NCBI GenBank assembly: GCA_021776215.1
Contig: JAJFGI010000028.1
Location: 1-62,457 of the forward strand
Source: Kiloniellaceae bacterium
GTDB taxonomy: Bacteria; Pseudomonadota; Alphaproteobacteria; Kiloniellales; J153
Length of the DNA: 62,457 bases
Direction of reading: 5' to 3'
Every line of letters starts with the position of its first letter. The stretch's first letter is position 1. The notes beneath the pieces were generated by a model. It was not told the origin of the DNA and ran no database searches. It was given only the letters and a program-made list of their open reading frames with translations. Both the position numbers and the translations under genes were made by a program. Of the stretch, positions 3,858 to 21,446 are shown piece by piece.

Positions 3858-4052
3858 TCGGGCGGCCCCGGCCGGCCCCGAGGCCGGCTTGCACGGCTCC
3901 GCCGTTGTGCGCTATACGAGATTGTGGCTCGGCGGCGAGTTGCATAGTCTGGAGCCCGCGCGCGTTTAGGCGGGCGGGGCTGTGTGCGCCGTCGCGCGAT
4001 ATTTTCCGCCGCAACTTGCGCGGGGGGACTCATGTTGAGGGGATTAGGGGAC

Positions 4053-5410: not shown

Positions 5411-8400
5411 ATGACCGAGGATCTGTCCTGGGGGCCGGCGGACGAGTCTGCCGCGAAGACCGAGTCCACCGGCGCCACGAATAACGGTGCCGTTTCGGGC
5501 ACCGAGGGCGCCGAGACGCTGGTCGGCCAAGCCGCCATTCTCGTGCAGGCCCCGCCGCCAGACACCGTGGTGACAATTCCGGTGGTGCCCGGACAGCGCT
5601 ACGTCATCGACTTCGATCCTGCCGCGGCTCAGATCGTTGTCGCCGGCGACGACCTGATCCTGACCTTCGCCAATGACGGTCGGATTGTTTTCCAGGACAT
5701 CGGCGCCATCGATCCCGCACTGGAAGCGCCGATCTTCGAAATTGCCGGAGCCGATGTGCCGGCCTCGGTTCTTTACCAGCAGGCGGTCGCTCTGGCCGGC
5801 CCTGCCGCGACGGTCGAGGGGCAGCCGACCCTGGAGACCGCGGCCGGCCCGGGCGCCGGGCCCGGCGCGCAGGGTACCGGCGCGACCCAGTACAGCGACG
5901 ATACCGGCCAGACCATCGACCTGCTCAATCCCCAAGGCGTTATTCCCGGCGTCGAGCGCGAGTTCGGCCTAATCACCCTGGAAAATATCGATCTGTTGGA
6001 GGAGCAGGAGGCGCTCCTGGTCGTGGGAAGCGTCGGCGATCCGACGGTGTCGATTTCCGGCAGCGGCGATGGCGGCTTCAAGGAAGATGCGCCCAACAAT
6101 GTGGCGATCACGGCGGCGGTCGCGGATTCGACCGATCAGCTCACCTCCATCGTCGTCGAGGGTTTGACCTGGGGCATCGCGCCGGCGGAACTGGCGGCGC
6201 TGGAGGCGGAGGCGGATGTCGCCAGCGTGACCTTCGTCGGCGGCACCTTGACGATCACCTTCGTGCCGGGCGTGGAAACCTTCGCCTACTTCGCGCTGAT
6301 CATGACTCCGCCGGAGGATACGGACGTCGACTTGCTGGGCACGATCACGGCGAACGCCCAGGATAAGACGAATCCCGCCCTGACCAGCAGCACCGCGATT
6401 GGGTTCACCTTCGTCGTCGACGCGGTTCTCGACTTCCAGCCGGAGATATCGCAGGGCTCGGCGCCGTCGGTGGGGGAGAGCGACGTCGCCCAGGACATCA
6501 GCCTGGGTCTTAGTTTTTCGTCGGTCAATGCGGGCTTTCCGCTATCGGGAGCCGGCGGCCCCGACGACGACGGCTCGGAGTCGACGACGGTCGAGATCGA
6601 AATCTCGGCGGGCACCCTGCAATTCGACGGCAGCGAGCCGGCCGGCGTATCGCTCGCCTTTAACGGCGGCACAGGCCGCTGGGAACTGACCGGCTACACC
6701 AATGACGCCGAGTTGGGCCAGGCGATCAATGCCCTGAGCATAAACGTCCCGGCGGGCTTCGACGGTGACATTACGGGAACGATCTTCACCCGGACGGCCG
6801 AGGCAAACACGCCCGAGGGAGCGGCGCCCGGCAGCGGCCAGGAACCCGAGACATCCGACAATGTGCGCGAAGGTACGTTCGAATTCAGCGCGACCGTTAG
6901 AGGAGACATTAGCCAACCAACGGTGGCGATTTCCGGCAGCGGCGATGGCGGCTTCAAGGAAGATGCCCCCAACAATGTAGCGATCAGTGCGTCTGTCGCG
7001 GATTCGACCGATCAACTCACTTCCATCGTCGTCGAGGGTCTGACCTGGGGCATCGCTCCGGCGGAACTGACCGCGCTGGAAGCGGACGCGGATGTCGCGA
7101 GCGTGACCTTCGTCGGCGGCACCTTGACGATTACCTTCGTGCCGGGGGTGGAGAGCTTCACCTACAGCGCCCTGACCATGACCCCGCCGGAGGACACGGA
7201 CGTCGACTTGCTGGGCACGATCACGGCGAATGCCCAGGATAAGACGACACCCGCCCTGACCAGCAGCACTGCTGTCGGGTTCACCTTCGTCGTCGATGCG
7301 GTTCTCGATTTCCAGCCGGAGATATCGCAGGCAGTGGCGCCGACGGAGGCGGAGAGCGACGTCGCGCAGGACATCAGCCTGGGTCTTAGTTTTTCGACGG
7401 TCAATGCCGGTTTTCCGTTCTCGGGAGCCGGTGGGCCTGACGACGACGGCTCGGAGTCGACGACGGTCGAAATCGAGATATCGGCGGGGACCCTGCAATT
7501 CGACGGCAGCGAGCCGGCCGGCGTATCGCTCGCCTTCAATGGCGGCACCGGCCGCTGGGAATTGACCGGCTACGCCAATGACGCCGAGCTGGGTCAGGCG
7601 ATCAATGCCCTGAGCATAAACGTTCCGGCGGGCTTCGATGGCGTCATTACGGGAACGGTCTTCACCCGGACGGTGGAAGCAAACACGCCCGAGGGCGCGG
7701 CGCCCGGCAGCGGCCAGGAGCCCGAGACATCCGATAACGTGCGAGAAGGCGAGTTCGCCTTCAGCGCGACCGTCGAAGGAAGCGCCGGCGAGCCGACCGT
7801 ATCGATTTCCGGCGGCGGCGATGGCATCTTCAAGGAAGATACTAGCGGCGAGGTCACGTTCTCGGCGGCAGTCGCGAATTCAACCGACGAGTTGACATCA
7901 TTGGAGATCTCGGGGCTTACCTGGGGCGTCGCCGCCAGCGAATTGACTGACTTGGAAGCGCTGGCGGACGTGGCGAGCGCGACTTTCGTGGGCGACACAC
8001 TGACGATCACGTTCGTGGCAGGTGTCGAGAGCTTTAACTACTCGGCCCTGACCGTAACTCCGCCAGCGGATACGGATGTCGACTTGTCGGGGGTGGTGAT
8101 CACGGCAAATGTCCAGGATAAGACGACGCCGGCCCTGACCGCCAGCAACTCCGCTGAGACCACATTCGTTGTCGACGCAGTGCTCGACTTTCAGCCGGAG
8201 GTATCGCAGGTCTTGGCGCCGTCGGTGGGCGAGAGCGACGTCGCGCAGGACATCAGCCTGGGTCTTAGTTTTTCGACGGTCAATGCCGGTTTTCCGTTCT
8301 CGGGAGCCGGCGGCCCCGACGACGACGGGTCGGAGTCGACGACGGTCGAAATCGAGATATCGGCGGGGACCCTGCAATTCGACGGCAGCGAGCCGGCCGG

Positions 8401-11326
8401 CGTATCGCTCGCCTTCAATGGCGGCACCGGCCGCTGGGAATTGACCGGCTATGCCAATGACGCCGAGCTGGGTCAGGCGATCAATGCCCTGAGCATAAAC
8501 GTCCCGGCGGGCTTCGACGGCGTAGTCACGGGCACGATCTTCACTCGGACGGCGGAAGCCAATACGCCCGAGGGCGCGGCGCCCGGCAGCGGCCAGGAAC
8601 CCGAAACATCCGACAACGTGCGCGAAGGCGCGTTCGAATTCAGCGCGACCGTCAGGGGCGATATCGGCGTTCCGGAAGTCAGTATCGTCGTCAACAGCAC
8701 CGATGCCGGCGCGTACTTTAAGGAGGACCTGCCACACGACGTCACCCTCTCGGCCTCGGTCAGCAATTCGACCGACGAGCTCACGTCGTTGGTCGTCGAG
8801 GGCCTGACCTGGGGCGTTTCAGGAGGGGAGCTGAGCGATCTGGAAGCATTGGCCGATGTGGCGAGCGCGACCTTCGTCGGCGGCACGCTGACGATCACGT
8901 TCGTGCCGGGGGTGGAAAGCTTTACCTATACCGAGCTGACCATGACGCCGCCGGAGGACACGGACGTCGATCTGTCGGGTGTGGTGATCACCGCGAATGC
9001 CCAGGACAAGACGACCCCGGCTCTGACCGCCAGCAATTCCGCCGGGACGACCTTCGTCGTCGATGCGGTGGCCGATGGGGGTGTCCTGGTCGATACCAGC
9101 GGTATTCCGGTCTCCGACGCCGGCGCGCCGGTCTCTCTTGGCTTGACCCTGACCACGGCGGTGGGCAATCCGGCCAATCCGGCCGGCGATGCGCAAAACC
9201 CCGGCGGGTTCGACACCGACGGGTCCGAGAGCGTGACCAGCGTGGTGGTGACCCTGAGCGGCATCGGTGTGGCCGACGATTCGGATGCCGCGCTGCTCTT
9301 CGACGATACCGGGTTGGTCATCACCGCCAACCACGTGGCGGGCTCGCTGGTGTGGGAGTTCTTGGGGTCGGAGGCCGATTTGCAGGCCCTGATGACCACC
9401 CTGCAGGTTGATCCAAGCAATGCCTTCGAGGGCACCATCGACGTCGCCGTCGCGGTGACCACCACCGAGGCGAATACGCCACAGGGCGCGGCGCCGGCAA
9501 GCGGACAAGAGCCCGAGACGAGCGACAACACCATCACCGAAACATTCAATTTCTCGGTCACGGTGACCGATACGGCGCCGGTCGCGGTCGATGACACGGA
9601 CGGCGGGCCGGAGGTCGGGAATACCAACCTGATCATCGTCTTCGACCGCTCCGGCAGCATGGGCGATAATCCGAGCACCGTCGGCTTCTCCGACCGCATT
9701 AATCTGGCGCGGGCGGCGATTGCTAACCTGCTTCATGCGGTCGGGCCGGACGGGAACGTCAACGTGATGATCGTTGATTTCAGCAGCAGCGCGTCGACGT
9801 CCGGCTGGCTGACCACCGCCGTGGAGGCCAATGCCTATCTGGGCAGCTTGCAGTTCGGTGGCACCACCAACTACAACGCCGCCATCAATTTGGCCCAGAC
9901 AGCGTTCGACGTTTCAATGAATCCGCCGACGAGCGGCAACAATGTGACCTACTTCCTCTCTGACGGTAAGCCGAATCCGGTTGCTACGGGCTTGGACCTC
10001 GGCGAGCAGACGACTTGGGAAACTTTCCTCGCGGCGAATAACATGCCGGCCTTTGCGATCGGCATCGGCGGCGGCGTCACCACCACCGAACTGGCCCCCA
10101 TTGCTCACGATCCGAACGATCCGGCGGGCGCGGCGAATACGCCAATCCTCGTGACGACCGAGGGCGAAATCATTAATCTCCTGGTCAACATAAGCGGCAC
10201 CGCTTTCAACGGCAACGTGCTGACCAATGACCTTCCTGGTGCCGACGGTTTCGGATCGCCGGCAATCACGCAGTTGGCTCTCAATGGCGTCGCGACCACC
10301 GGGTTCACCAGCGCGTTCAGTGTGGCGGTTGCATCTGTCGCCGGCATGATCACGCTGACCGGCTCGATCGGCGCCGACGATTACTGGGTGTTGACCCTCG
10401 ATACCGCCGATGCAGGTGCCGGCAACTACCAGCTCACGCTGCTGCGGCCTTTGCCGCACACTGTGGACGGCGGTGTCGGTAGTCTCGTGTTCGATTACAC
10501 CATTGTCGACGGGGATGGCGATATCGACAGCGCATCGCTTTCCTTCAACATCAACGATGTGCCGGGGGCCGGCGTCGGCTTGCCGCAAATCATCGATACG
10601 GCGAACAACAATGGCGTTCTCAACGGCACCGATGCGGACGAAATCCTGGCGGGGGGTGCCGGCAACGACATCCTCAATGCCGGTGGCGGCAACGACCACC
10701 TTTACGGGGGCAACGGCAACGATATCCTGAATGGCGGCGACGGGGATGACATTCTCATCGGCGGCGACGGCAACGACGAGCTCAACGGGGGTGCCGGCAA
10801 CGACGTTCTCAACGGCGGCGCTGGCATCGACATCCTCGACGGCGGTGCCGATAACGACGCGCTCTATGGCGGCTTGGGCAACGATACGCTGATCGGTGGA
10901 TTGGGCGACGATCTCCTGATCGGCGGTGGCGGCAACGACATCCTCGACGGCGGACCCGGCGCCGATATCATGCACGGCAGCAATTCGCCCGGCAACGGCG
11001 GCTCCGTGGATTTCCGATACAGCCTTGCCGATCTTGGCACGGGTGTCGATACAATCATCGGCTTCGACGATGACGGCTCGGGCGAGGATCAGCTCGATCT
11101 GCGCGACATCTTCACGGGGCCGGAGAATTTTGCGACACTGATCGCTGGTGGCTTCCTGATCCTCGACAACAGCGCCAACGTCGGGGGCGGTCCCGGCAAC
11201 GACACCGTGGTCAGCATTGACCTCGACGGGGCCGTCGGGATAGGTGCCCCGGTGATTTTGGTCAACATTCTGGACGTCAATACCCTCGACAGTCCGTTGG
11301 ATAGCTTCAACTTCATCGTCAACTAG
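5411..11326 (+). CDS. Giant LapA-like RTX adhesin (type I secretion substrate) with tandem repeats, a VWA domain and an RTX block
   Basis: Track ORF, 1971 aa. I see no cysteine in the translation, and the protein is acidic. It has an N-terminal ~140-aa module followed by TAAG, then four ~292-aa tandem repeats. The VWA MIDAS motif DRSGS lies at 9644-9658. Twelve consecutive GGxGxDxLx nonapeptides lie at 10649-10978. The C-terminal tail is typical of T1SS substrates. T1SS genes and a LapG-like gene lie adjacent. Confidence 0.9.
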   Translation: MTEDLSWGPADESAAKTESTGATNNGAVSGTEGAETLVGQAAILVQAPPPDTVVTIPVVPGQRYVIDFDPAAAQIVVAGDDLILTFANDGRIVFQDIGAIDPALEAPIFEIAGADVPASVLYQQAVALAGPAATVEGQPTLETAAGPGAGPGAQGTGATQYSDDTGQTIDLLNPQGVIPGVEREFGLITLENIDLLEEQEALLVVGSVGDPTVSISGSGDGGFKEDAPNNVAITAAVADSTDQLTSIVVEGLTWGIAPAELAALEAEADVASVTFVGGTLTITFVPGVETFAYFALIMTPPEDTDVDLLGTITANAQDKTNPALTSSTAIGFTFVVDAVLDFQPEISQGSAPSVGESDVAQDISLGLSFSSVNAGFPLSGAGGPDDDGSESTTVEIEISAGTLQFDGSEPAGVSLAFNGGTGRWELTGYTNDAELGQAINALSINVPAGFDGDITGTIFTRTAEANTPEGAAPGSGQEPETSDNVREGTFEFSATVRGDISQPTVAISGSGDGGFKEDAPNNVAISASVADSTDQLTSIVVEGLTWGIAPAELTALEADADVASVTFVGGTLTITFVPGVESFTYSALTMTPPEDTDVDLLGTITANAQDKTTPALTSSTAVGFTFVVDAVLDFQPEISQAVAPTEAESDVAQDISLGLSFSTVNAGFPFSGAGGPDDDGSESTTVEIEISAGTLQFDGSEPAGVSLAFNGGTGRWELTGYANDAELGQAINALSINVPAGFDGVITGTVFTRTVEANTPEGAAPGSGQEPETSDNVREGEFAFSATVEGSAGEPTVSISGGGDGIFKEDTSGEVTFSAAVANSTDELTSLEISGLTWGVAASELTDLEALADVASATFVGDTLTITFVAGVESFNYSALTVTPPADTDVDLSGVVITANVQDKTTPALTASNSAETTFVVDAVLDFQPEVSQVLAPSVGESDVAQDISLGLSFSTVNAGFPFSGAGGPDDDGSESTTVEIEISAGTLQFDGSEPAGVSLAFNGGTGRWELTGYANDAELGQAINALSINVPAGFDGVVTGTIFTRTAEANTPEGAAPGSGQEPETSDNVREGAFEFSATVRGDIGVPEVSIVVNSTDAGAYFKEDLPHDVTLSASVSNSTDELTSLVVEGLTWGVSGGELSDLEALADVASATFVGGTLTITFVPGVESFTYTELTMTPPEDTDVDLSGVVITANAQDKTTPALTASNSAGTTFVVDAVADGGVLVDTSGIPVSDAGAPVSLGLTLTTAVGNPANPAGDAQNPGGFDTDGSESVTSVVVTLSGIGVADDSDAALLFDDTGLVITANHVAGSLVWEFLGSEADLQALMTTLQVDPSNAFEGTIDVAVAVTTTEANTPQGAAPASGQEPETSDNTITETFNFSVTVTDTAPVAVDDTDGGPEVGNTNLIIVFDRSGSMGDNPSTVGFSDRINLARAAIANLLHAVGPDGNVNVMIVDFSSSASTSGWLTTAVEANAYLGSLQFGGTTNYNAAINLAQTAFDVSMNPPTSGNNVTYFLSDGKPNPVATGLDLGEQTTWETFLAANNMPAFAIGIGGGVTTTELAPIAHDPNDPAGAANTPILVTTEGEIINLLVNISGTAFNGNVLTNDLPGADGFGSPAITQLALNGVATTGFTSAFSVAVASVAGMITLTGSIGADDYWVLTLDTADAGAGNYQLTLLRPLPHTVDGGVGSLVFDYTIVDGDGDIDSASLSFNINDVPGAGVGLPQIIDTANNNGVLNGTDADEILAGGAGNDILNAGGGNDHLYGGNGNDILNGGDGDDILIGGDGNDELNGGAGNDVLNGGAGIDILDGGADNDALYGGLGNDTLIGGLGDDLLIGGGGNDILDGGPGADIMHGSNSPGNGGSVDFRYSLADLGTGVDTIIGFDDDGSGEDQLDLRDIFTGPENFATLIAGGFLILDNSANVGGGPGNDTVVSIDLDGAVGIGAPVILVNILDVNTLDSPLDSFNFIVN
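5837..5848 (+). other. TAAG di-alanine motif (candidate LapG-type cleavage site) in the adhesin, residues 143-146
   Basis: Codons acc gcg gcc ggc fall in frame within ...QPTLETAAGPGAGPGAQG..., directly followed by a Gly/Pro/Ala linker. The motif matches the (T/A/P)AA(G/V) pattern known for LapA-type substrates. Confidence 0.55.
6041..6916 (+). repeat. Adhesin tandem repeat unit 1 (876 bp, 292 aa)
   Basis: The unit starts at PTVSISGSGDGGFKEDAPNN and ends at ...EANTPEGAAPGSGQEPETSDNVREGTFEFSATVRGDISQ. It stays in frame, with a period of 876 bp to the next unit. Confidence 0.9.
6917..7792 (+). repeat. Adhesin tandem repeat unit 2 (876 bp)
   Basis: Near-identical to unit 1 at both DNA and protein level (PTVAISGSGDGGFKEDAPNN...). 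Confidence 0.9.
7793..8671 (+). repeat. Adhesin tandem repeat unit 3 (879 bp)
   Basis: PTVSISGGGDGIFKEDTSGE... The second half (VVDAVLDFQPE...SESTTVEIEISAGTLQFDGSEPAGVSLAFNGGTGRWELTGY) is nearly identical to units 1-2. Confidence 0.9.
8672..9577 (+). repeat. Adhesin tandem repeat unit 4 (906 bp, diverged)
   Basis: PEVSIVVNSTDAGAYFKEDLPHD... The first half is conserved and the second half has diverged, but it still ends in EANTPQGAAPASGQEPETSDN...FNFSVTVTDTA. Confidence 0.8.
10649..10978 (+). repeat. RTX calcium-binding block: 12 consecutive nonapeptide repeats
   Basis: GGAGNDILN AGGGNDHLY GGNGNDILN GGDGDDILI GGDGNDELN GGAGNDVLN GGAGIDILD GGADNDALY GGLGNDTLI GGLGDDLLI GGGGNDILD GGPGADIMH, counted by eye. 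Confidence 0.9.
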
Positions 11327-11487: not shown

Positions 11488-11610
11488 AGCCTGGTCAATA
11501 TTGAGCGCATCGACGGGGGCGCCGGCAATGACACGGTCATCGGCACCGCCGGCAATTCGGTGACCGATCTGCTTAACGAACTCGGTCCGACCGGCGCTGA
11601 AGTCGCCTAG
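11488..11610 (+). pseudogene. Relic of an RTX-protein C-terminus (no start codon, about 40 codons)
   Basis: My translation gives SLVNIERIDGGAGNDTVIGTAGNSVTDLLNELGPTGAEVA*. It contains one canonical RTX nonapeptide, GGAGNDTVI. The frame is closed by stops at 11422 and 11443 and has no ATG. It lies just past the adhesin terminator. Confidence 0.5.
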
Positions 11611-12671
11611 CGACTTTGCGGGATCGCCAGGATCAGGCGTCCCAGCAAGGCAACGGATGCGTCGCCATCGACCGGCAGCCCGGCTTTCGCCTGAAACGCC
11701 GATATGGCGGCTTTCTCGGCTGCCGGGTCATCGGTCGCGGCCGGCGCCAGCAAGCCCAACGTCGTCAACAACGCGTCGATCGTGCGCCGCGGAATAGGCG
11801 TAGCCGGGCCGCCGCCGGCCGGGGCGCGGCCGTTCGACCACGTGGCGCCGCCACGCTGCGCCGCCGCCACGGCTTGTGCGGGCCCCTTGCCCGGCTGAAA
11901 CAGGGCCACCGATAGGGCGCCGGCGGTCTCTCCAGTCTTGGTTTGGGCGTTGAGGACGTGCAGGCCGGTCACCCGGACCTCGCCGTCCACGAAGACGATC
12001 AGCGGCGAGCCGGAATCGCCCTTCGCCAGATGGCAGGAATGCAGGAGTCCGGACTCGCCGCGAAAACTCCCCAGGATTTCGCAGCCGAGATTGACGGACA
12101 TGATGTTGCTGCGGCCCTGGCTGTAGCCGGCCTGGACCAGCCGCGCCTCGCCGCGGCGGATGCGCGCGGCAAGTTCCTCGTCCAGCCGGCGCAGCCCGAG
12201 CCAGCCGGCCTGTCGGCCGATGGGCACCTCCAGCTCGAGCACGGCCCAGTCGACGACGGCATTGTCTGTCGCCGCGCCGGCGCGGTAGTCGAAGCGACGG
12301 TCTCGTTCATAGCCGCGGACCGGCGAATGGATGAGGTAGGTATCGCGCTGATAGCCGGCCACGAAATGAACCTCGCCAGGGCCACGCCAGCGTCCCTCGA
12401 TGGGGTCGTAGAGGCAGTGCGCCGCCGTCAGGACGGCGGTTTCACTGATCAGGAAGCCGGTGCAATGGCCGCGCCCACCGACGTTGACCCGGCCGATGGC
12501 GCTCCACGGATACTCCATGGCGTTCACTTCGAAGCGCTCGCCCAACGCCGCCGCATGGCTGGTGGCGAGGATGGAACCCGCGAGCAGGATCACGACGGCA
12601 CGTCGCGTCGCCCGGATGCACCGCGCGGTAAACCGGCGCCTGCCGTCCTTGGGCTTGTCGAAAGTCGTCAT
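11607..12671 (-). CDS. Secreted trypsin-like (S1, Glu-specific-endopeptidase-like) serine protease with a C-terminal peptidoglycan-binding domain
   Basis: Track ORF 11607..12755. The start was chosen at MTTFDKPKDGRRR... before a hydrophobic signal/anchor. Catalytic motifs are TAAHC (His) and GDSGSP (Ser). The C-terminal AAISAFQAKAGLPVDGDASVALLGRL resembles a PG_binding_1 domain. Confidence 0.75.
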   Translation of the reverse strand: MTTFDKPKDGRRRFTARCIRATRRAVVILLAGSILATSHAAALGERFEVNAMEYPWSAIGRVNVGGRGHCTGFLISETAVLTAAHCLYDPIEGRWRGPGEVHFVAGYQRDTYLIHSPVRGYERDRRFDYRAGAATDNAVVDWAVLELEVPIGRQAGWLGLRRLDEELAARIRRGEARLVQAGYSQGRSNIMSVNLGCEILGSFRGESGLLHSCHLAKGDSGSPLIVFVDGEVRVTGLHVLNAQTKTGETAGALSVALFQPGKGPAQAVAAAQRGGATWSNGRAPAGGGPATPIPRRTIDALLTTLGLLAPAATDDPAAEKAAISAFQAKAGLPVDGDASVALLGRLILAIPQSR

Positions 12672-12732: not shown

Positions 12733-14847
12733 TCAGTCGACCGCGACGCTGGCAATCAGCTTTTCGCCGGCGACCGAGCCCACGGCTTCGCGCAGCGCCG
12801 CCACCACCGCCGGGTCGTAGCGGTCCGTGTTCTGCTCAAGAATATCGAGCGCCTCGCCCGCAGCGATGCCGGCGCGATAGGAGCGTGGCTCCACCCGGGC
12901 ACAGAACACGTCGCAGGCGCCAAGAATCCGCGCGGTAAGGCGGATCTGATCGCCGGACAGGCCGGCGGGATAGCCCTTGCCATCGAGACGTTCGTGCATC
13001 TGATACACGGTTTCGAGCACGGGCAATCCAAAGTCGATCTCGCGCAGGATGGCGGCGGCATGGTCCAGGTGCTCCTGCATCTCCGCAATCTCGCCTTCGC
13101 TCAGGCGGCCGGGCTTGTTGAGGATCTCCCGGGAGATCGCCAGCTTGCCGATCTGCGATAGGTTGGCGGCGATCTCGACCGTGGCGATATCCTCGGCGCT
13201 GGCGTCAAGGCGCTGCGCGACGGCGGTGGCGAATCCGGCCACCCGGCGCGAATGGCCGCCAAGATAGGGATCGCGCAACTCGATGGCCCGCACCAAGGCG
13301 GTGACCATCTGCTGAATGGCCTTCTCCTTCATGCGTTGCTGTTCGACCAGTTCGGTCACATCGCGGGTCACCGAGACGATGCCTGACGTTTTCCCGTGAT
13401 CACCCTGATAGGGAACCTTGGAGATCTGGAAGTAGTGCAGCTTCTTGCCCAGATAGATCTCTTCATTGACGGTCACGGCGGCGCCCGAGGCCACCGCTCT
13501 TTGGTCAGAGAGCCGCAGGCGCTGGGCGGTGCCCGCGCCGAAAATCGCGCTATCGTCGAGGCCGATAATCTTGTCCACATCCCGGCCAAGGGCCCGGGCG
13601 AACGCCGGATTGACGTACTGATAGGTGCCGTCCAGGGCTTTCAATCCGATGTAGTCGGCCATCGTATTGTTGATGCTGTTCAGCAGCTGCTTTTGGGCCT
13701 CGATACGTGCCGCCAGGCGGCGGAACTGATCGGCCAGGGCCGAGCTGTGCTCGTTGGACAAGCGCCACCAGAAGGCGCCAAAGGCGGCGACAACGGCGAG
13801 GACGACGAGAACCGAAACCGCTATAGCCGCCGCCACGAAGCCGGCCAGGGTCTCGTCTACGGCGGCCGCCTCGATTTCTTGCACGATCCACCAAGCCGGT
13901 CCGCTGGCGGCGACGCCGACCGAGTAGACCTGCTGGCCGCCGTCGATGGAGGTGCGGCGGCCAAAGGGAATCGAATGATCCGGCCCATCCAGCTCGAGTC
14001 CCGCGATAGGGCGCAGCGGCGGCACCTCGCCCGGCGTTACGGCGACAAAGTCGCCGTCGTCAAGCTGCACCAGCCGTGGGCGTTCGCCCGGCTGGGAGAG
14101 GGGCGGCGGCGTCAATATCTGACCGAGCGCGGCAGAGACCGGCGCGGTGAGCAACAGGACCCCGACAGGGCGCTCCGCCGCAACCTCGCTCTGGGCCCGA
14201 AAGATCGGCGCGTGGACGTCCAGAACCAATCCCGTCGCCGCGGCGCGGGCGGGCCCATAACGCAACACCCCGGTCTCGAACACCTCGGCGGCGATGGCCT
14301 GCTGCGCCGGTGAGATGGGGTCGGCACCGGCGCTGGTAACATAGGCGATACCGTTGCGGCCGACGACGTATGCTGCCAGGAAATCGGCGCTTTTCGTAAA
14401 GTCGGTCAAGACCTGCTGCATGAACGGAAGTTGCGCCGCCAGGGGCACGCCCATGCCCGAGGGCACCGCGGCGTCCGGTGGCACGGGCTGATCGCGGGTC
14501 GCCAGGTCCGAAATATCGCCGCCGGACAGATCCATCTCGGTGGCGAACAGACGGAACAGCTCGCTGCCGACAACCCGGTCCGCCGGCCGCGTCATGCCAT
14601 CGAGCCAGGCGGCGATGACATCCCCGCGGCCGTCCGCCAGGATCTGCAGGCGGCGCTCGAACTCGCCCACCACCTCGGTACGCTTGACCTGTATGGCGAT
14701 GAACGGCACGACGATGGCGATGACAACCACGATCGTGATCACCAACGCGCCGCGAGTCAGCGTGCGCGAAGCCGCCGGCCGGAAATCCTTGGGGTCGATA
14801 TCAGCGGATATGAGATCGGGAGCCGCCGCTTCGCCGGAGCTGGCCAT
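12733..14847 (-). CDS. Transmembrane sensor: periplasmic Cache-like domain, PAS domain, and an HD-GYP domain with a degenerate HD dyad (candidate c-di-GMP receptor)
   Basis: Track ORF, 704 aa. TM1 is LVITIVVVIAIVVPFIAI and TM2 is FVAAAIAVSVLVVLAVVAAFGAFWW, flanking about 280 periplasmic residues. A PAS-like segment (LNSINNTMADYIGLKALDGTYQYVNPAF...) follows. The HD-GYP domain reads GGHSRRV...AANLSQIGK...MHERLDGKGYPAGL...CDVFCA. The gene starts 20 nt after the stop of the LapG-like gene. Confidence 0.85.
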   Translation of the reverse strand: MASSGEAAAPDLISADIDPKDFRPAASRTLTRGALVITIVVVIAIVVPFIAIQVKRTEVVGEFERRLQILADGRGDVIAAWLDGMTRPADRVVGSELFRLFATEMDLSGGDISDLATRDQPVPPDAAVPSGMGVPLAAQLPFMQQVLTDFTKSADFLAAYVVGRNGIAYVTSAGADPISPAQQAIAAEVFETGVLRYGPARAAATGLVLDVHAPIFRAQSEVAAERPVGVLLLTAPVSAALGQILTPPPLSQPGERPRLVQLDDGDFVAVTPGEVPPLRPIAGLELDGPDHSIPFGRRTSIDGGQQVYSVGVAASGPAWWIVQEIEAAAVDETLAGFVAAAIAVSVLVVLAVVAAFGAFWWRLSNEHSSALADQFRRLAARIEAQKQLLNSINNTMADYIGLKALDGTYQYVNPAFARALGRDVDKIIGLDDSAIFGAGTAQRLRLSDQRAVASGAAVTVNEEIYLGKKLHYFQISKVPYQGDHGKTSGIVSVTRDVTELVEQQRMKEKAIQQMVTALVRAIELRDPYLGGHSRRVAGFATAVAQRLDASAEDIATVEIAANLSQIGKLAISREILNKPGRLSEGEIAEMQEHLDHAAAILREIDFGLPVLETVYQMHERLDGKGYPAGLSGDQIRLTARILGACDVFCARVEPRSYRAGIAAGEALDILEQNTDRYDPAVVAALREAVGSVAGEKLIASVAVD

Positions 14848-14867: not shown

Positions 14868-15650
14868 TCAGTTACGTGCGGCCAAACCCTGGTACGGCTG
14901 CGTGCTTGGCTTCTTGAAGCCGCCGATATGGGCCCACCGCGTGGTTTCATTCATGGAGTACTGCGGTACATAGTGCTTATACATCGAATGAGATAGAATG
15001 AGATTCGATAGGCTATCAAGTATTAATATGTCGTCGTCGTCGTAAATCGCCAGGACCGCGTGGCCGATACCCCGGATTTCGTCCATCAGGATGACGATAC
15101 GCATCTCCTCTTTATTGAAGCCTAATTTCCGCAGCGCGAAGTACTTAGCGATCGAATAGTCTTCGCAGTCTCCGGAACGGGTCATGAATTCCCGCGGTGT
15201 GGCCCAGTACTCGCTTAGACCATAGACTTCGGTATCCAGTTTGTATGGCCAGCGGTTGAAGAAGTCGTTGACCGCCGCCAGCTTGTCGCGCCGGCCAAGG
15301 CTCGTCGCCGATGTGATGATCCTGCGCCAGTTCTTGAGGACCGGGGAGCCGCACTCGACAGGGCTTGCGACACACCGATCGAAGGCCGGCTCCTCGGCCT
15401 GCATGGCGGCCAGTACCCGGGTCCATTGTGGCAGGCCCGCGAGCGAGTCGGATCCTACCTCGACCGAGCCGAACACAGCGGTCCCTTCGGTGTCGGTCAG
15501 ACGGGCACTCTGGCCAGCGCGCAGGACGTCGGCGAGCGTCTTTTCCCCGGCCGCGTTGCTGCGCGCGGCCCCGGTCAGGGTGACTGCCAAAAAAGCTGCA
15601 GAGGCGGCTAGAAAGCCTCGCCGGGTCAATGCGGTACGCTCCCTGGACAA
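14868..15650 (-). CDS. lapG: LapG-like periplasmic bacterial transglutaminase-like cysteine protease (BTLCP, Peptidase_C93 family)
   Basis: Track ORF, 260 aa. It has a twin-arginine signal, LTRRGFLAASAAFLAV. The candidate catalytic triad context is SGDCEDYSIAKYFALRKLGF (Cys), GIGHAVLAIY (His) and ILILDSLSN (Asp). The neighbourhood of T1SS genes and an RTX adhesin fits this call. Confidence 0.8.
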   Translation of the reverse strand: MSRERTALTRRGFLAASAAFLAVTLTGAARSNAAGEKTLADVLRAGQSARLTDTEGTAVFGSVEVGSDSLAGLPQWTRVLAAMQAEEPAFDRCVASPVECGSPVLKNWRRIITSATSLGRRDKLAAVNDFFNRWPYKLDTEVYGLSEYWATPREFMTRSGDCEDYSIAKYFALRKLGFNKEEMRIVILMDEIRGIGHAVLAIYDDDDILILDSLSNLILSHSMYKHYVPQYSMNETTRWAHIGGFKKPSTQPYQGLAARN

Positions 15651-15833: not shown

Positions 15834-17153
15834 TCACCGCTCGCGCAGGGCCCGCTGTTTTGCCTTCAGGATGGGCTTCAGGAGATAGTCGAGGACCGTC
15901 TTCTTGCCGGTCAGAATCTCGACCGTGGCGGTCATGCCGGGGATGATGGGCAGCTCGTTGCCCTGATGGCTCAGGGTATTGCGCTCGGTCCGCAGGTAGA
16001 CGCGGTAAAAGCTCTCGCCCTCTTCGTCGCGGATGGTATCGGCGCTGATCTGTTCCAGTTTGCTTTTCAGCCCGCCATAGATCGAGAAGTCATACGCCGC
16101 CACCTTGATCATGGATTCCTGCCCGGGGCGCAGGAAGGCGATGTCTTTCGGACGAATCCGGGCTTCCACCAGCAGGCTGTCGTCGAGCGGCACGATCTCG
16201 ACGATATCCTGTCCGGGGCGGATCACGCCGCCGACGGTGTTGACCTTGACCTCCTTCACGGTGCCGCGGACCGGCGAGCGCACCTCGGTGCGGGTGACGC
16301 GGTCCTCGCCGGCAAACAGTGTCTCGCGCACCGACTTGAACTCGGCGCGGACCTTGTTGAGCTCGTTCGACGCCTCCGCCTTGGCGGCCAGGCGCACCTG
16401 CAAAATGCGCTGGGTGGCCTCTTCCGCGGCGGTGGTCAGCCGGGGAATGCTCAGCCGGATGGTGCTGATCTCGCCTTGCAGATCGGCGACCTGGCGTTCG
16501 ATGCGCAGCAAGTCGATGCGCGGGACCACGCCGTTGCGCACCAACGGCTCGGTGATCGCCAATTCCTCGCGGGCCAACTGCAGGCTGCGTTCCAGCTGCT
16601 TGCGGCGGCTGGCCATCTCGCCGACCTCTTGCTTGCGCTGCGAGGCTTGCGCCTCGAGCACCGAGATTTGAGCCTTTAGCTGCTGACGGCGGGCCTCGAA
16701 CAAGGCCTTCTGGTCGGCGGCGGCGCCCGGCGCTTCCTTCAGGATCTCGTCGGAATACACCAGATCGTCGCCTTCCTGCTCGGCCTCCAGGCGCTGAACG
16801 GTGGCCTGCAACGTATAGTATTGGGTCTGCAGGTCGCGAAAGTTCGCCTGCGCCGCCGTGTTGTCGATGCGCAGCAAGATGCTGCCGCTCTCGACGATAT
16901 CGCCCTCATGCACCAGGATCTCGGACAGAATACCGCCTTCCAGATTCTGGATGATCTGGGTCTTGCTGGAGGGGACGATGCGACCCTCGCCCCGGGTCAC
17001 CTCATCGAGCACGGCGAAGTTCGCCCAGACCACGAAGGTGACGAAGAACAACAGGGTCATCAAAGTCAGAATATAGGCGAAGCCATGCCCGCGCCGCCGG
17101 GCGGCGGCATGCACGTCCGGCATGAAATGAAGGTCTTCGTTGCGGCTAGCCAT
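15834..17153 (-). CDS. HlyD-family type I secretion periplasmic adaptor (LapC-like)
   Basis: Track ORF, 439 aa. It has an N-terminal anchor FAYILTLMTLLFFVTFVVWANFA, a long coiled-coil, and a C-terminal barrel ending in the family-typical block TGKKTVLDYLLKPI. It starts 19 nt after the ABC gene. Confidence 0.9.
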   Translation of the reverse strand: MASRNEDLHFMPDVHAAARRRGHGFAYILTLMTLLFFVTFVVWANFAVLDEVTRGEGRIVPSSKTQIIQNLEGGILSEILVHEGDIVESGSILLRIDNTAAQANFRDLQTQYYTLQATVQRLEAEQEGDDLVYSDEILKEAPGAAADQKALFEARRQQLKAQISVLEAQASQRKQEVGEMASRRKQLERSLQLAREELAITEPLVRNGVVPRIDLLRIERQVADLQGEISTIRLSIPRLTTAAEEATQRILQVRLAAKAEASNELNKVRAEFKSVRETLFAGEDRVTRTEVRSPVRGTVKEVKVNTVGGVIRPGQDIVEIVPLDDSLLVEARIRPKDIAFLRPGQESMIKVAAYDFSIYGGLKSKLEQISADTIRDEEGESFYRVYLRTERNTLSHQGNELPIIPGMTATVEILTGKKTVLDYLLKPILKAKQRALRER

Positions 17154-17171: not shown

Positions 17172-19652
17172 TCAGGTCTTGGCGGCGCGGATCTGGCCCT
17201 GCTTCAGGGCGTTGAGCACGTCGTCCTTGGGTCCGTCCGCGACGACCCTGCCGCCGTCGATGACCACCAGGCGATCGACCAGACTGAGCAACGAGCTGCG
17301 GTGGGTAACAAGAAGCAGCGTCTTGCCCGGCAGGATCTGCTCCAAGCGGCGCTTGAACAACGCCTCTGTCGAGTTGTCCATGTTGCTGGTCGGCTCGTCC
17401 AGCAGGATGATCGGCGGGTCGAGCAGCATGGCGCGGGCGATAACGATCGCCTGGCGCTGGCCGCCGGATAGGCCCATGCCCCGTTCGCCCACCTGCAGGT
17501 CGAAGCCGTGCGGATGGGTGCGCAAGAAATCGCTCACGCCGGCAACATGGGCCGCGCGCAAAACCGTCGCATCGTCCACGTGCGGCGCGCCGAAAGCGAT
17601 GTTGTCGCGCACCGTCCCGAAGAACAGATAGTTGTCCTGCGACACGTAGCCGACATTGCGCCGCAAATCCGCTGGATCGATCTGACGAATATCGGTGCCG
17701 TCCATGAGCACGGCGCCCTCCGCCGGCTCGTAAAGGCCGATCAGCAAGCGCGCGATGGTACTTTTGCCTGAGCCGATCCGGCCGAGGATGCCGACCTTTT
17801 CGCCCGGCTTGATCTTGAAGGAGATGCCGTCGAGCGCTGGATTTTCCTGTCCCGGATACTTGAATGAAACCTTCTGGACATTGATCTGGCCGCTGAGCCG
17901 CGGACGATGCAGGAAGCTCTTGTCCAGCGGCCGCTCGACCGGGGCCTTCATGATCGTATCCAGAGATTGCAAGGCCACCCGCGATTGCTGCAGGCGCGTC
18001 AGCATGGCGGCGATCGATCCCAGCGGGGCCAGAGCGCGACCGGTCAGAATGGTCGCCGCCACCAGGGCGCCCATGGTGATCTCCCCGGCGGCGATCAGAT
18101 GCACGCCATACACCACCACGGCGACGGTGACCAACTGGATCGACACCTGCGCGAATGTCGTCGCCAGGCCGGACAAGAAGCGCGCCTTGCCGGACGACTC
18201 GGCGGTCAGGCCGACGAAACGCTCCCAGGCGCGTTGCACCCGGCCCTCGGCCGCCGTGGCCTTGATGGTTTCCAGCCCATCGATGGTCTCGACCAGCAGG
18301 GCGTGCTTCTGGGTCGCCTCGCGATAGGTTTTTTCGACCACGCGGCGCAGCGGAAACTGCAACAGCGCGCCGACGAGAATGACGGCGGGCACTGCGGCCA
18401 GCGGGATGAAGGCGACAGGGCCGGCGACCAGCCAGATGACCGCCAGGAAAAGCAGGATGAACGGCAAATCGACCAGGGCGACCACGGTGCCGGAGGTGAA
18501 GAACTCGCGCAGCGATTCGAACTCGCGCAGGTTGTTGGCCATGGCGCCGGTGGACGGCCCCTTGCTCGCCAGTTTCATGGACATGAGCTGTTCGAGAAGG
18601 CGGCTGGCGATGATCACGTCCGCGTTCTTGCCTGCCACGTCGACGAAGTAGGTGCGGATGTTGCGCATGACGAATTCGAAGACGAAGACGATGGTTACCC
18701 CGAGCGCCAGCACCCAGAGAGTCTCCACCGCGTTGTTCGGCACCACGCGGTCATAGACGTTCATGATGAACAGCGGGCTGGCCAGGGCGAAGCTGTTGAT
18801 CAGGATCGAGGCGAGCAGGACGTGGCTGTAGATCGGCCAGAAGCCGGCCAGGGTGCCCCAGAACCACGACCGCGGCTGGCTGAGCCGGATCTCCGAGACG
18901 CGCTGGTCGAACTTGTACTCCGGCCGGGCGAATATGGCGTAGCCGGCGTATTGCGGCTCCAGCTCGACCAGATCCACGGCCTTTTTGGCGCTGCCCCCCT
19001 CCGGCAGAATGATCTCGGCCCGGCCGCCCTCCAGATAGCGCAGTAGCACGCAGGCGTTCCCGCCCTTGAGAAGAAGGATGCAGGGCAAGGTGACCGGCAG
19101 GATCTGACTCAGCTTGGACCGCCGGGTGATGCGGGCGTCCAGGCCGGCCCGCGCGGCAGCGCGCACCGCCATCTCCGGGCTGAAGCGGTGGTCTTGCGGC
19201 AGACCGGCCCGCAACGCCTCGGCGGAGATGGGGCGCTGCAGCAGGGTCGCCAGGGTCGTCAGGGTGGCCAGAAGCGGCTCGATGAAATCGACCGCCGACG
19301 GCGCGACCTGCCAGTCATGCGGACCCTCTATGATCTGGTCTTTGGAGAGCGGGGGACCGTCTGCCGGTGTGTGGGCGGCAGCGGGCTTGGCGCCGATCGC
19401 ACTGACAGGGGCAGGTCCCGTTCCGCTGTCGGCCTTGTTGCCGGCGACAGCGGACGTTTCCCGGCCGGCCGTGGCAATTCGGCCACGGACCTGTGCAATA
19501 CCCTGGGGTTCGTGAGGGGGAGCTCCCGTCAGCGCCGTCTTGGCGGTTGCGCGGGCCAAGCGATCCGCCGAGAGTCCACCGGTTTCGTCCTTATTGGCTG
19601 CCATGCAGGCGCGTTGCCTTCTTGTAATGTCGTTTGGTTCGATCCACGGCAC
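17172..19652 (-). CDS. Type I secretion ABC transporter (permease/ATPase with an N-terminal C39-like domain; LapB-like)
   Basis: Track ORF, 826 aa. Walker A is GRIGSGKST, the signature is LSGGQRQ, and Walker B is ILLDEPTS. It has six TM segments and a C39-like domain region (LPCILLLKGGNACVLL). An Ala/Pro/Gly-rich N-terminal extension of roughly 110 aa precedes this. The true start is uncertain; an alternative Met lies at 19604. Confidence 0.9.
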   Translation of the reverse strand: MPWIEPNDITRRQRACMAANKDETGGLSADRLARATAKTALTGAPPHEPQGIAQVRGRIATAGRETSAVAGNKADSGTGPAPVSAIGAKPAAAHTPADGPPLSKDQIIEGPHDWQVAPSAVDFIEPLLATLTTLATLLQRPISAEALRAGLPQDHRFSPEMAVRAAARAGLDARITRRSKLSQILPVTLPCILLLKGGNACVLLRYLEGGRAEIILPEGGSAKKAVDLVELEPQYAGYAIFARPEYKFDQRVSEIRLSQPRSWFWGTLAGFWPIYSHVLLASILINSFALASPLFIMNVYDRVVPNNAVETLWVLALGVTIVFVFEFVMRNIRTYFVDVAGKNADVIIASRLLEQLMSMKLASKGPSTGAMANNLREFESLREFFTSGTVVALVDLPFILLFLAVIWLVAGPVAFIPLAAVPAVILVGALLQFPLRRVVEKTYREATQKHALLVETIDGLETIKATAAEGRVQRAWERFVGLTAESSGKARFLSGLATTFAQVSIQLVTVAVVVYGVHLIAAGEITMGALVAATILTGRALAPLGSIAAMLTRLQQSRVALQSLDTIMKAPVERPLDKSFLHRPRLSGQINVQKVSFKYPGQENPALDGISFKIKPGEKVGILGRIGSGKSTIARLLIGLYEPAEGAVLMDGTDIRQIDPADLRRNVGYVSQDNYLFFGTVRDNIAFGAPHVDDATVLRAAHVAGVSDFLRTHPHGFDLQVGERGMGLSGGQRQAIVIARAMLLDPPIILLDEPTSNMDNSTEALFKRRLEQILPGKTLLLVTHRSSLLSLVDRLVVIDGGRVVADGPKDDVLNALKQGQIRAAKT

Positions 19653-19917: not shown

Positions 19918-20060
19918 GGGCCAAGTGAAGGATGGGCTCAACGCGTTGACTTTTTGGCGAAACCCGGCGTAATACATGCTCCATTTGTGGCATGTCTGGT
20001 CAGGTATTGGCCATAAGCGGGCCCACAAGCTGGATGTGCAAGGGTAAACGGGGGAACACT

Positions 20061-21446
20061 ATGCGTTGGTCGCACAGAAGACTGACCTATCACTTTAGAG
20101 CGGCGCTTCTGGGAACTGCGTTGGTCATTCCCGGCGCGTTCGCTGCCCAGGCGATGAGCCTGAAAGAGGCGATTCAGCTCGCCATATCCACCAATCCGGA
20201 TATCGGCATCGTCGCGAGCAATCGCGAGGCTGTGGACGAGGAGCTGAGACAGGCGCGGGGCCTGTATCTGCCGCAGATCGACCTGGCCGCAGGAATCGGC
20301 AAGGAGCGCACCAATGATCGGACGACACGGGCGCGGGCTGGCGGCTCCACGGATGGGTTGACCCTGACCCGGCAGGAAGCATCGTTGACGCTGCAGCAGC
20401 GAATCTTCGACGGTTACGAGACGGACAGCACGGTGCGGCGCGAAAAGGCTCGAGTCGAGTCGGCGGCCAGGCGCGTTGCCGAGAACAGCGAGTTCCTGGC
20501 ACTGGACGCGATCGGGGCCTACGTCGAGGTGCTGCGCCAGCGGGAGTTGGTGCGGTTGGCCGAGGAGAACCTGCGGGTTCATTCCGGCATCCTCGGCTCG
20601 CTGAGACAGCGCTTGGAGGGTGGCGGCGGCAGCCGCGCCGATGTGGCCCAGACCGAGGCGCGCAATTCGCGTGCCCGGGCCACGATTACGCAAACGCTCA
20701 ATGATTTGCGGGATGCCGAGGCCGCCTTTACCCGTATCGTCGGCCAGTTCCCCGACGCGTTGGAATCGCCGGAGTTTCCCACGGGCGTGTTGCCGGGGGA
20801 TCTGGATGCGGCGGTCGGGCTGGCAGGCACCAACAACCCGACCACCCGAATCTTCGAGGCGGACGTGCGCTCCGCCGATGCCGAGGTTTCGGTCGCCGAG
20901 GTACCGTTCTATCCGGCCGTCTCGCTGGAGGCGCAGTCGGAGTACAACGACGGGCGCGACGGTATCAACAGTTACGAGTTCAACAATCAGGTGATGCTGC
21001 GCGTCCGCTGGAATCTGTTCCGCGGCGGCATCGACCGGGCGGCGCGGCAAGAGGCCCTGGCGCGTTTGTCGGAGAGCAAGAACCGCCGCCTGCGGTCGTA
21101 CCTCGAGGCGCAGCAGGAAATGCGTCAGTCCTGGTTCGCCCTCGAAGCCAGTCGGCAGCGAGTCGAGGATCTGTCGGATTCGGTCAGGTTCAATATGGAA
21201 ACCCGGGACGCCTATCGGCAACAGTTCGAGGTGGCGCAGCGGACCCTGCTCGACGTCCTCGATGCCGAGAACGAGCTTTTTGTCTCAAGCGGCCAACTCG
21301 TGACAGCCCAGACCAACGAGATCTTGGCGTCCTACCGCATTCTGGCGGTTTCGGGGGCGCTGCTGACCACCCTGGGCGTGCCAGCGCCGGAGCAGGCCGT
21401 CGTCGAAGACAAGACATGGCTGCAAGGCATCGGCGTTGCTGATTAG
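20061..21446 (+). CDS. TolC-family outer-membrane channel of the type I secretion system (LapE-like)
   Basis: Track ORF 19992..21446. The start was chosen at MRWSHRRL... (SD gggggaa), with signal peptide ...LVIPGAFAAQA. The internally duplicated TolC architecture is visible (LKEAIQLAISTNPDI..., later AVGLAGTNNPT...). Confidence 0.85.
   Translation: MRWSHRRLTYHFRAALLGTALVIPGAFAAQAMSLKEAIQLAISTNPDIGIVASNREAVDEELRQARGLYLPQIDLAAGIGKERTNDRTTRARAGGSTDGLTLTRQEASLTLQQRIFDGYETDSTVRREKARVESAARRVAENSEFLALDAIGAYVEVLRQRELVRLAEENLRVHSGILGSLRQRLEGGGGSRADVAQTEARNSRARATITQTLNDLRDAEAAFTRIVGQFPDALESPEFPTGVLPGDLDAAVGLAGTNNPTTRIFEADVRSADAEVSVAEVPFYPAVSLEAQSEYNDGRDGINSYEFNNQVMLRVRWNLFRGGIDRAARQEALARLSESKNRRLRSYLEAQQEMRQSWFALEASRQRVEDLSDSVRFNMETRDAYRQQFEVAQRTLLDVLDAENELFVSSGQLVTAQTNEILASYRILAVSGALLTTLGVPAPEQAVVEDKTWLQGIGVAD

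Follow-up and report, generated by a model that had tools for sequence, protein, structure and literature searches.

What takes the place of LapD where a BTLCP protease, a type 1 secretion system and a large adhesin are encoded next to a degenerate HD-GYP protein? The question is raised by a locus of a Kiloniellaceae bacterium (assembly GCA_021776215.1, contig JAJFGI010000028.1, positions 1 to 62,457), a stretch of 62,457 nucleotides that was analysed at its full length and is called the window below. Directly after the BTLCP gene, on the minus strand, stands a gene (12733-14847) for a 704-residue inner-membrane protein, referred to here as the receptor. An earlier note on this DNA had proposed that its catalytically dead HD-GYP domain acts as a receptor for cyclic di-GMP (c-di-GMP) and substitutes for LapD. 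Sequence comparison and published work on a homologue lead us to conclude that the receptor is very probably an orthologue of DvhD (DVU1020 / BfsD) of Desulfovibrio (Nitratidesulfovibrio) vulgaris Hildenborough (PDB 9RC0, 9RBZ and 9RC2; Font et al. Nat Commun 2026, PMC13090378), and as such an HD-GYP-type functional replacement of LapD in an uncultured Kiloniellaceae-type alphaproteobacterium. The homology over the whole length, the states of the ligand positions, the gene linkage and the cleavage motif are direct observations.

DvhD has a periplasmic dCache domain, and its HD-GYP domain reads SQ for HD and MN for HH and binds no metal (PMC13090378). It hydrolyzed no c-di-GMP with any ion tested (PMC13090378). 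It binds c-di-GMP with a dissociation constant (Kd) of ~99 nM (PMC13090378; 322 nM in an earlier study, PMC10990149) and controls the BTLCP protease DvhG in a c-di-GMP-dependent manner, as a functional LapD analogue (Karbelkar et al. PNAS 2024, PMC10990149; PMC13090378). The binding, the inactivity and the control of DvhG found for this homologue support the proposed role of the receptor as a LapD substitute.

Architecture and fold of the receptor

The open reading frame (ORF), Pfam, Protein Data Bank (PDB) matches and an AlphaFold2 model together give the order transmembrane helix 1, dCache, transmembrane helix 2, PAS, stalk and degenerate HD-GYP. A hydropathy scan found exactly two hydrophobic segments, at residues ~28-57 and 332-364. 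Transmembrane helix 1 was placed at residues ~33-55 (14683-14751, minus strand, as for all features of the receptor), within a long helix of the model (residues 26-86), and transmembrane helix 2 at residues ~335-361 (13765-13845), within a model helix spanning 327-364. Between them lies a periplasmic part of ~280 residues, a dCache-type domain (residues ~56-334; 13846-14682) assigned from its match to 9rc2 and from Foldseek. On the cytoplasmic side, a PAS domain (residues ~384-505; 13333-13698) was recognized by Pfam PAS_4 at 397-501 and by TIGR00229 at 384-505. It is followed by the stalk helix and the degenerate HD-GYP domain (residues 506-704; 12736-13332; Pfam HD_5 at 518-681, E = 1e-40; match to 9rbz, E = 1e-53). 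The two membrane helices around a Cache-like periplasmic domain of about 280 residues and the PAS domain, as described in the earlier note, are thus borne out by the hydropathy scan, the 9rc2 match and PAS_4. Pfam finds only PAS and HD/HD_5 in the receptor, and no LapD_MoxY_N, HAMP, GGDEF or EAL domain.

When the receptor sequence was searched against the PDB, the three top matches, each titled "HD domain/sensory box protein", were the DvhD entries 9rc0, 9rbz and 9rc2. The PAS/HD-GYP fragment (9rc0) was matched with E = 1e-79, the HD-GYP domain (9rbz) with E = 3e-52, and the periplasmic domain (9rc2) with E = 3.7e-35 over receptor residues 63-327. The best match other than DvhD was the cGAMP-specific enzyme V-cGAP3 (5z7c, E = 1e-34), and PmGH was found with E = 1.5e-19. 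An AlphaFold2 model built from a 42-sequence alignment (mean pLDDT 82.7) gave the same picture in Foldseek. Its six best PDB fold matches were all DvhD, with target-normalised TM-scores of 0.80-0.88, and the periplasmic domain scored 0.88 against 9rc2.

Active-site residues in the HD-GYP domain

To map the metal-ligand positions, the domain was aligned by phmmer with PmGH (4MCW), an active phosphodiesterase, and the published list of PmGH ligands was used: E185, H189, H221, D222, H250, H276, H277 and D305. The chain index of 4MCW equals the published residue number plus 6, as confirmed by the HD dyad and K225. The catalytic His-Asp of PmGH (H221/D222) is replaced by Ser564-Gln565 (13153-13158; S564 at 13156-13158 and Q565 at 13153-13155). 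The HHE motif has become Met617-His618-Glu619 (12991-12999), in which the first His ligand (H276) is lost to M617 and the second (H277) is kept as H618. The equivalent of ADVYDAL reads C645-D646-V647-F648-C649-A650-R651 (12895-12915); it keeps D305 as D646 and has lost the structural D308 to C649. H189 and H250 are kept as H532 and H593, the position of E185 is taken by Y528, a Tyr as in the Y/F "binuclear" subfamily, and the catalytic pair D183/K225 is kept as D526/K568. The GYP motif is intact (Gly625-Tyr626-Pro627; 12967-12975). Thus, four of the eight PmGH metal ligands are kept in the receptor and two in DvhD. Among the seven ligands common to all active enzymes (H189, H221, D222, H250, H276, H277 and D305), the receptor has four.

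The earlier note had read SQ for HD, MHE for HHE, CDVFCAR for ADVYDAL and a retained GYP at these same positions, and a check of the translation found every coordinate exact. It had also claimed that the HD dyad is lost, which the alignment to PmGH confirms. No alternative alignment gives an HD dyad elsewhere in the receptor, and Pfam HD_5 spans residues 518-681 end to end. Each of the single substitutions H221A, D222A and H276A abolishes the activity of PmGH. Because the equivalents of all three residues are lost in the receptor, its HD-GYP domain is very unlikely to be a normal phosphodiesterase.

Conservation across the family

A HMMER search of 1.84 billion cluster representatives returned ~150 relatives, nearly all of them full length. 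The family alignment contains 141 rows, made up of 138 full-length representatives (50% identity clusters) and three reference rows, among them the DvhD HD-GYP sequence and PmGH. The 138 representatives comprise 130 relatives of at least 600 residues and eight closer homologues. At the position of H221, Ser is found in 113 of the 141 rows, with Cys, Ala or Phe in the others. The D222 position is Gln in 132 rows and the H276 position Met in 131. In the GYP motif, Gly is present in all 141 rows, Tyr in 138 and Pro in 139. None of the 138 representatives has an intact HD dyad, and the pattern of the receptor, H-SQ-H-MH-D-C, is the commonest in the family (28 members). Since the substitutions are conserved across the family, they are not sequencing noise. 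A pseudogene or a sequencing artefact was ruled out, the ORF being intact and the substitutions kept family-wide. The closest homologues of the receptor are proteins from metagenome-assembled genomes (MAGs) labelled Kiloniellaceae or Kiloniellales, followed by those of Pelagibius and Kiloniella at 53-56% identity. A dead HD-GYP domain serving as c-di-GMP receptor in the place of LapD would thus be a conserved family trait that reaches into marine alphaproteobacteria.

Predicted nucleotide sites

Six contacts of the canonical c-di-GMP site of DvhD are identical in the receptor: Y523 (Y528 in the receptor), L577 (L582), Y621 (Y626), R650 (R655), Y652 (Y657) and R653 (R658). Each of the six is kept in 105 to 141 of the 141 family rows; R655 is found in all 141, Y626 in 138, R658 in 135 and Y657 in 127. 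Y621 of DvhD, the equivalent of Y626 in the GYP motif, touches a phosphodiester of c-di-GMP (PMC13090378). The conservation of these residues is consistent with a c-di-GMP site in the receptor like that of DvhD.

The BTLCP gene and its linkage to the receptor gene

On the minus strand, the genes follow in the order ABC transporter, HlyD-type protein, BTLCP, receptor and S1 protease, with gaps of 18, 183, 20 and 61 nucleotides. The BTLCP gene (14868-15650, minus strand), which adjoins that of the receptor, encodes a DvhG-LapG-type cysteine protease recognized by Pfam Peptidase_C93 (65 bits against a cut-off of 27) and by LapG structures. It retains GDCEDY (active site and calcium motif), the His (GHAVL) and the Asp (LDSL), as aligned to the LapG structures 4u65 and 4fgo. 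With the NCBIfam LapG model it scored 98 bits, under the equivalog cut-off of 320 bits. Because that cut-off is not reached, the BTLCP protease is classed by sequence as a DvhG type, not as a strict LapG equivalog. A twin-arginine motif, T-R-R-G-F-L, is found at residues 9-14. The Tat-type BTLCP protease that the earlier note saw next to the receptor is confirmed by this motif, by the Peptidase_C93 match and by its gene lying 20 nucleotides upstream.

We scanned 185,579 species genomes with an 8-sequence alignment and obtained 80 loci, which were then searched with the proteins of the window by tblastn. The counts below take the loci with enough flank, and a neighbor is a gene directly adjacent on the same strand. 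A BTLCP gene stands directly upstream of the receptor gene in 72 of 73 loci (52 of 53 alphaproteobacterial and 20 of 20 Desulfovibrionales-type loci). SQ-type proteins with dCache, PAS and HD-GYP domains are thus specifically linked to BTLCP genes, a link that the earlier note had proposed to survey. Type 1 secretion genes lie upstream in most of the related loci, and the gene order in Kiloniella laminariae is the same as at the receptor locus. The lone exception (locus L057, 9665-12091), in the Kiloniellales MAG PL25a_bin.68, has no BTLCP gene within 10 kb despite ample flanks; its orphan DvhD-like ORF (808 residues, open frame) adjoins an amine oxidase gene and a YdjM-type gene. Pelagibius marinus NBU2595 has two receptor/BTLCP pairs in one genome (loci L014 and L017). 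Close to the L014 pair there are neither type 1 secretion genes nor an S1 protease gene; an adhesin under its control might thus be encoded at another locus.

The adhesin and secretion genes

The adhesin gene (5411-11326, plus strand) converges on the receptor operon and encodes a 1971-residue RTX protein in which large tandem repeats are combined with a VWA domain and RTX repeats (Pfam HemolysinCabind and VWA). It is the probable substrate of the BTLCP protease, judged by its sequence. A LapG/DvhG-type [T/A/P]AAG cleavage motif, T143-A144-A145-G146 (5837-5848, plus strand), forms a candidate site in a disordered segment. The AlphaFold2 model of the N-terminus has a beta-rich domain (residues 41-117, pLDDT ~86-92), a helix (118-129) and a disordered stretch (131-162). 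A protein search with residues 1-220 found E142-T143-A144-A145 invariant in 12 homologues, and the linker around it is variable. In DvhA/LapA substrates, a retention domain is followed by a helix and the [T/A/P]AAG motif, and the scissile bond lies between the two Ala residues. The modeled N-terminus matches this layout, and cleavage at the motif is predicted. When the fold of this N-terminal model was compared with the PDB, nothing matched at E <= 0.001, which left the retention domain without a link to any solved structure. In most of the related loci, the start of the adhesin gene lies beyond the 10-kb flank or the contig end.

Farther along the adhesin, four near-identical tandem units of ~290 residues each, beginning near SISGSGDGGFKEDAPNNVAI and ending in PEGAAPGSGQEPETSDN, precede the VWA domain (~1406-1569) and the RTX block (~1731-1860). 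Just upstream of the adhesin gene and on the same strand is an OmpA-family gene (3984-4958, plus strand; OmpA domain at residues 223-317), the product of which might serve the adhesin system as an accessory anchor, in the outer membrane or on peptidoglycan.

The secretion genes include a type 1 membrane-fusion protein of the HlyD/AprE type (15834-17153, minus strand), identified from its ORF and, in related loci too, encoded upstream of the BTLCP gene, and a type 1 ABC transporter (17172-19652, minus strand), identified from its ORF and conserved synteny. The ORF of a TolC-like outer-membrane factor (19992-21446, plus strand) is likewise conserved, and divergent, in related loci. Elsewhere in the window, an 808-residue ORF (27346-29772, minus strand) has an MFS domain only at residues 391-733, and its N-terminal ~390 residues have no Pfam match.

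The S1 serine protease gene downstream

The gene after that of the receptor (11607-12671, minus strand) encodes an S1 serine protease of the V8-like / YdgD-like kind that carries a peptidoglycan-binding domain at its C-terminus (Pfam Trypsin, Trypsin_2 and PG_binding_1). Its NCBI product of 354 residues has intact triad motifs (TAAHC, DWAVL and GDSGSP) and a signal-like N-terminus. The ATG at 12671, which fits the 354-residue product, was preferred as the start to a TTG at 12755 that would make the ORF overlap the receptor gene. In Kiloniella laminariae, the called start of the S1 gene overlaps the stop of the receptor gene by 4 nucleotides. An S1 protease gene stands directly downstream of the receptor gene in 42 of 53 alphaproteobacterial loci and in none of 21 Desulfovibrionales-type loci, which marks it as an accessory gene of the alphaproteobacterial clade alone.

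The best structural relative of the S1 protease is PDB 7UXG, of which our literature search found no published description. Of the 10 papers listed for LapG, adhesin and type 1 secretion together with "trypsin-like", none uses the latter term. In the DvhD paper, the S1 gene is an unnamed flanking cluster of the supplement and is absent from the main text (PMC13090378).

Proposed mechanism and alternatives

The receptor would share with DvhD the binding of the nucleotide, the absence of catalysis and the control over the protease, and the following mechanism is proposed by analogy with DvhD. The receptor would be a dimer in the inner membrane. With both the HD dyad and the leading His of HH gone, its HD-GYP domain would not hydrolyze c-di-GMP. 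It keeps the GYP loop and the Arg and Tyr residues that hold the nucleotide, so it could serve as a receptor. Binding of c-di-GMP would rearrange the stalk helices, as the DvhD structures suggest, and the change would be relayed by the PAS domain and then by the membrane helices. In the periplasm it would reach the dCache domain, which would then restrain the Tat-exported BTLCP protease. At low c-di-GMP, nothing would keep the protease from cutting the RTX adhesin at the invariant L-E-T-A-A-G, just past the retention domain, and the cut adhesin would leave its TolC-type channel. The earlier note had the receptor sequester the protease in the periplasm. That the BTLCP protease is kept in check agrees with the c-di-GMP-dependent control of DvhG by DvhD; that it is sequestered goes beyond what is established even for DvhD.

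Several points weigh against this proposal. The function of the alphaproteobacterial members is read from one homologue, DvhD. Three contacts of the canonical site differ in the receptor (K582 to I587, M646 to R651 and E668 to N673), at positions that are variable across the family. The bridging site of DvhD, which holds a third c-di-GMP per dimer, is not kept, P567, R569 and K520 being S572, E574 and R525 in the receptor. Because this site is not conserved and the P567T mutant of DvhD was impaired (PMC13090378), the stoichiometry and cooperativity of c-di-GMP binding may differ from those of DvhD. The four putative metal ligands that are kept (H532, H593, H618 and D646) may allow some metal binding. 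A LapD may also be encoded elsewhere in the genome, beyond the 62-kb window; no GGDEF, EAL or LapD-type gene was found among the larger ORFs of the window scanned with Pfam.

The bridging-site Pro itself is present in 118 of the 141 family rows and is replaced by Ser, Arg, Asp or Ala in several Kiloniellaceae-type sequences; K520 and R569 of DvhD are not conserved across the family. The bridging site is therefore probably not a defining feature of the DvhD family, as far as the alignment indicates. S572 of the receptor (13132-13134, minus strand) is lineage-specific, since the Pro is present in 11 of the 12 proteins most closely related to the receptor (82-87% identity).

Other readings of the receptor concern its chemistry and its ligand. 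The four retained ligands could form a reduced metal site in an active, unusual c-di-GMP phosphodiesterase, which would also have the D183/K225 pair. H618 and D646 are invariant or nearly so within the Kiloniellaceae-type clade, which suggests their continued importance; DvhD has Asn at both positions. We regard such an enzyme as highly improbable. The equivalents of H221, D222 and H276 are all replaced, each alone being essential in PmGH; DvhD with SQ and M was inactive with every metal tested (PMC13090378), and no member of the family keeps the HD dyad. Another possibility is that the physiological ligand in this clade is some cyclic dinucleotide other than c-di-GMP, for example 3'3'-cGAMP, or a mixture. 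Even for DvhD, 3'3'-cGAMP is a ligand (Kd ~0.5 µM, five-fold weaker than c-di-GMP), and E668, which confers guanine specificity in DvhD (PMC13090378), corresponds to Asn673 in the receptor and to Asn in at least 90% of the clade. V-cGAP3, the best PDB match other than DvhD, also has Asn at the aligned position. Given the Asn in both proteins and the only five-fold weaker binding of 3'3'-cGAMP by DvhD, the nucleotide preference of the clade may differ from that of DvhD. A switch of ligand is unlikely, however, when the rest of the canonical site is as in DvhD, a protein with a preference for c-di-GMP, and when position 673 varies across the whole family (Asn 40, His 28, Glu 13 and Asp 13). Moreover, the Pfam scan of the larger ORFs of the window found no cGAMP synthase, and the similarity to V-cGAP3 may reflect mere relatedness within a subfamily.

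The periplasmic side offers two more alternatives. Domains of the dCache type typically sense ligands outside the cytoplasm, the receptor has a PAS domain besides, and LapD shows bidirectional signaling; the main input could then be a small molecule bound by the dCache domain, with the receptor as an outside-in or coincidence detector that the nucleotide only modulates. We think this rather doubtful, since the dCache domain of DvhD showed neither ligand density nor recognizable conservation of a ligand site (PMC13090378), and the BTLCP linkage (72 of 73 loci) suggests that the partner of the periplasmic domain is a protein. Alternatively, the receptor might also, or instead, control the V8-like S1 protease in a two-protease system of the alphaproteobacteria. 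The S1 gene appears to share the operon of the receptor, the two genes being adjacent at most alphaproteobacterial loci and overlapping in Kiloniella laminariae, and the adhesin has an invariant Glu before its TAAG motif. We give this arrangement little chance. "V8-like Glu-specific endopeptidase" is an annotation label only and an interaction with the receptor is purely conjectural. The core mechanism can do without the S1 gene, since 11 alphaproteobacterial loci and every one of the 21 Desulfovibrionales-type loci lack it.

A further, tentative idea goes beyond the DvhD-like reading that we prefer. The alphaproteobacterial DvhDG system, that of Kiloniellaceae, Pelagibius, Kiloniella and Denitrobaculum, might be a three-component variant, in which a periplasmic, peptidoglycan-tethered V8-like (Glu-specific) protease takes part in adhesin release and the receptor reads the nucleotide signal differently. 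The S1 protease might cut at or next to Leu-Glu-Thr-Ala-Ala-Gly, or clear the leftover retention plug. With the bridging site lost, the metal site kept in part and Asn as the base-specificity residue, the receptor might read the signal in another way than DvhD. We hold this to be improbable as a whole. The invariant Glu142 before TAAG (5834-5848, plus strand) might, as pure speculation, be a second processing site for an endopeptidase of the Glu-specific type.

Comparison with known systems

Active HD-GYP enzymes (PmGH, 4MCW; PA4781, 4R8Z; V-cGAP3, 5Z7C) share with the receptor the fold, the GYP loop and the Arg/Lys contacts to the substrate, and Y528 places it in their Y/F ("binuclear") subfamily. 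They differ from it in having all seven shared ligands, of which the receptor is without three (H221, D222 and H276). Degenerate HD-GYP proteins are known from Shewanella HnoD, with SE for HD and QLE for HHE, and from Pectobacterium ECA3548. Like the receptor, these have lost metal ligands; they show no hydrolysis and act through binding or protein-protein interaction (Galperin & Chou preprint). However, their architectures are of the soluble response-regulator type or of other types, they have neither a dCache domain nor a linkage to BTLCP genes, and their substitutions differ.

LapD of Pseudomonas fluorescens and its orthologues (Legionella CdgS9 and those of Vibrio, Bordetella and Shewanella, BpfD) resemble the proposed receptor in function. 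LapD is an inside-out c-di-GMP receptor of the inner membrane with a dead phosphodiesterase-type domain, and the periplasmic BTLCP protease under its control cleaves a di-alanine site in a type 1-secreted adhesin. There is no homology, however. LapD consists of LapD_MoxY_N, HAMP, a degenerate GGDEF and a degenerate EAL domain, and binds LapG via a conserved Trp; a LapD homologue was ruled out for the receptor, which shares no domain with it.

The closest system is that of DvhD, for which this receptor design was published in 2024 and 2026. The alphaproteobacterial clade is also already catalogued. Supplementary Data 1 of PMC13090378 lists DvhD homologues from Pelagibius, Denitrobaculum, Kiloniella, Fodinicurvata, Oceanibacterium and Sneathiella, and its Supplementary Table 7 gives Tat signals, predicted with probability 1.0, for the DvhG homologues of Pelagibius. 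Since its relatives and the Tat predictions are already in that supplement, the receptor is an uncharacterized member of a catalogued family. For such genes, annotation as "DvhD-type c-di-GMP receptors of adhesin-release systems" would be preferable to "HD-GYP phosphodiesterase".

The two proteins differ in several respects. Their identity is ~39-44%. DvhD has Asn and Asn where the receptor has H618 and D646, and its P567, R569, K520 and E668 are Ser, Glu, Arg and Asn in the receptor. DvhG is anchored in the membrane in D. vulgaris, whereas the BTLCP protease here carries a Tat signal. An S1 protease gene follows the receptor gene here, and the host is a marine-type alphaproteobacterium, not a sulfate reducer. 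The S1 protease gene, the lost bridging-site Pro and the four kept metal ligands are clade-specific leads for comparative biochemistry with DvhD. Both proteins have the domain order of membrane helix, dCache, membrane helix, PAS and HD-GYP; both have SQ for HD, Met for the first His of HH, Cys for D308 and an intact GYP, and both keep the Arg/Tyr/Arg and Tyr contacts of the canonical c-di-GMP site. In both loci, the gene stands directly after a BTLCP gene and type 1 secretion genes, near an RTX/VWA adhesin with a [T/A/P]AAG motif.

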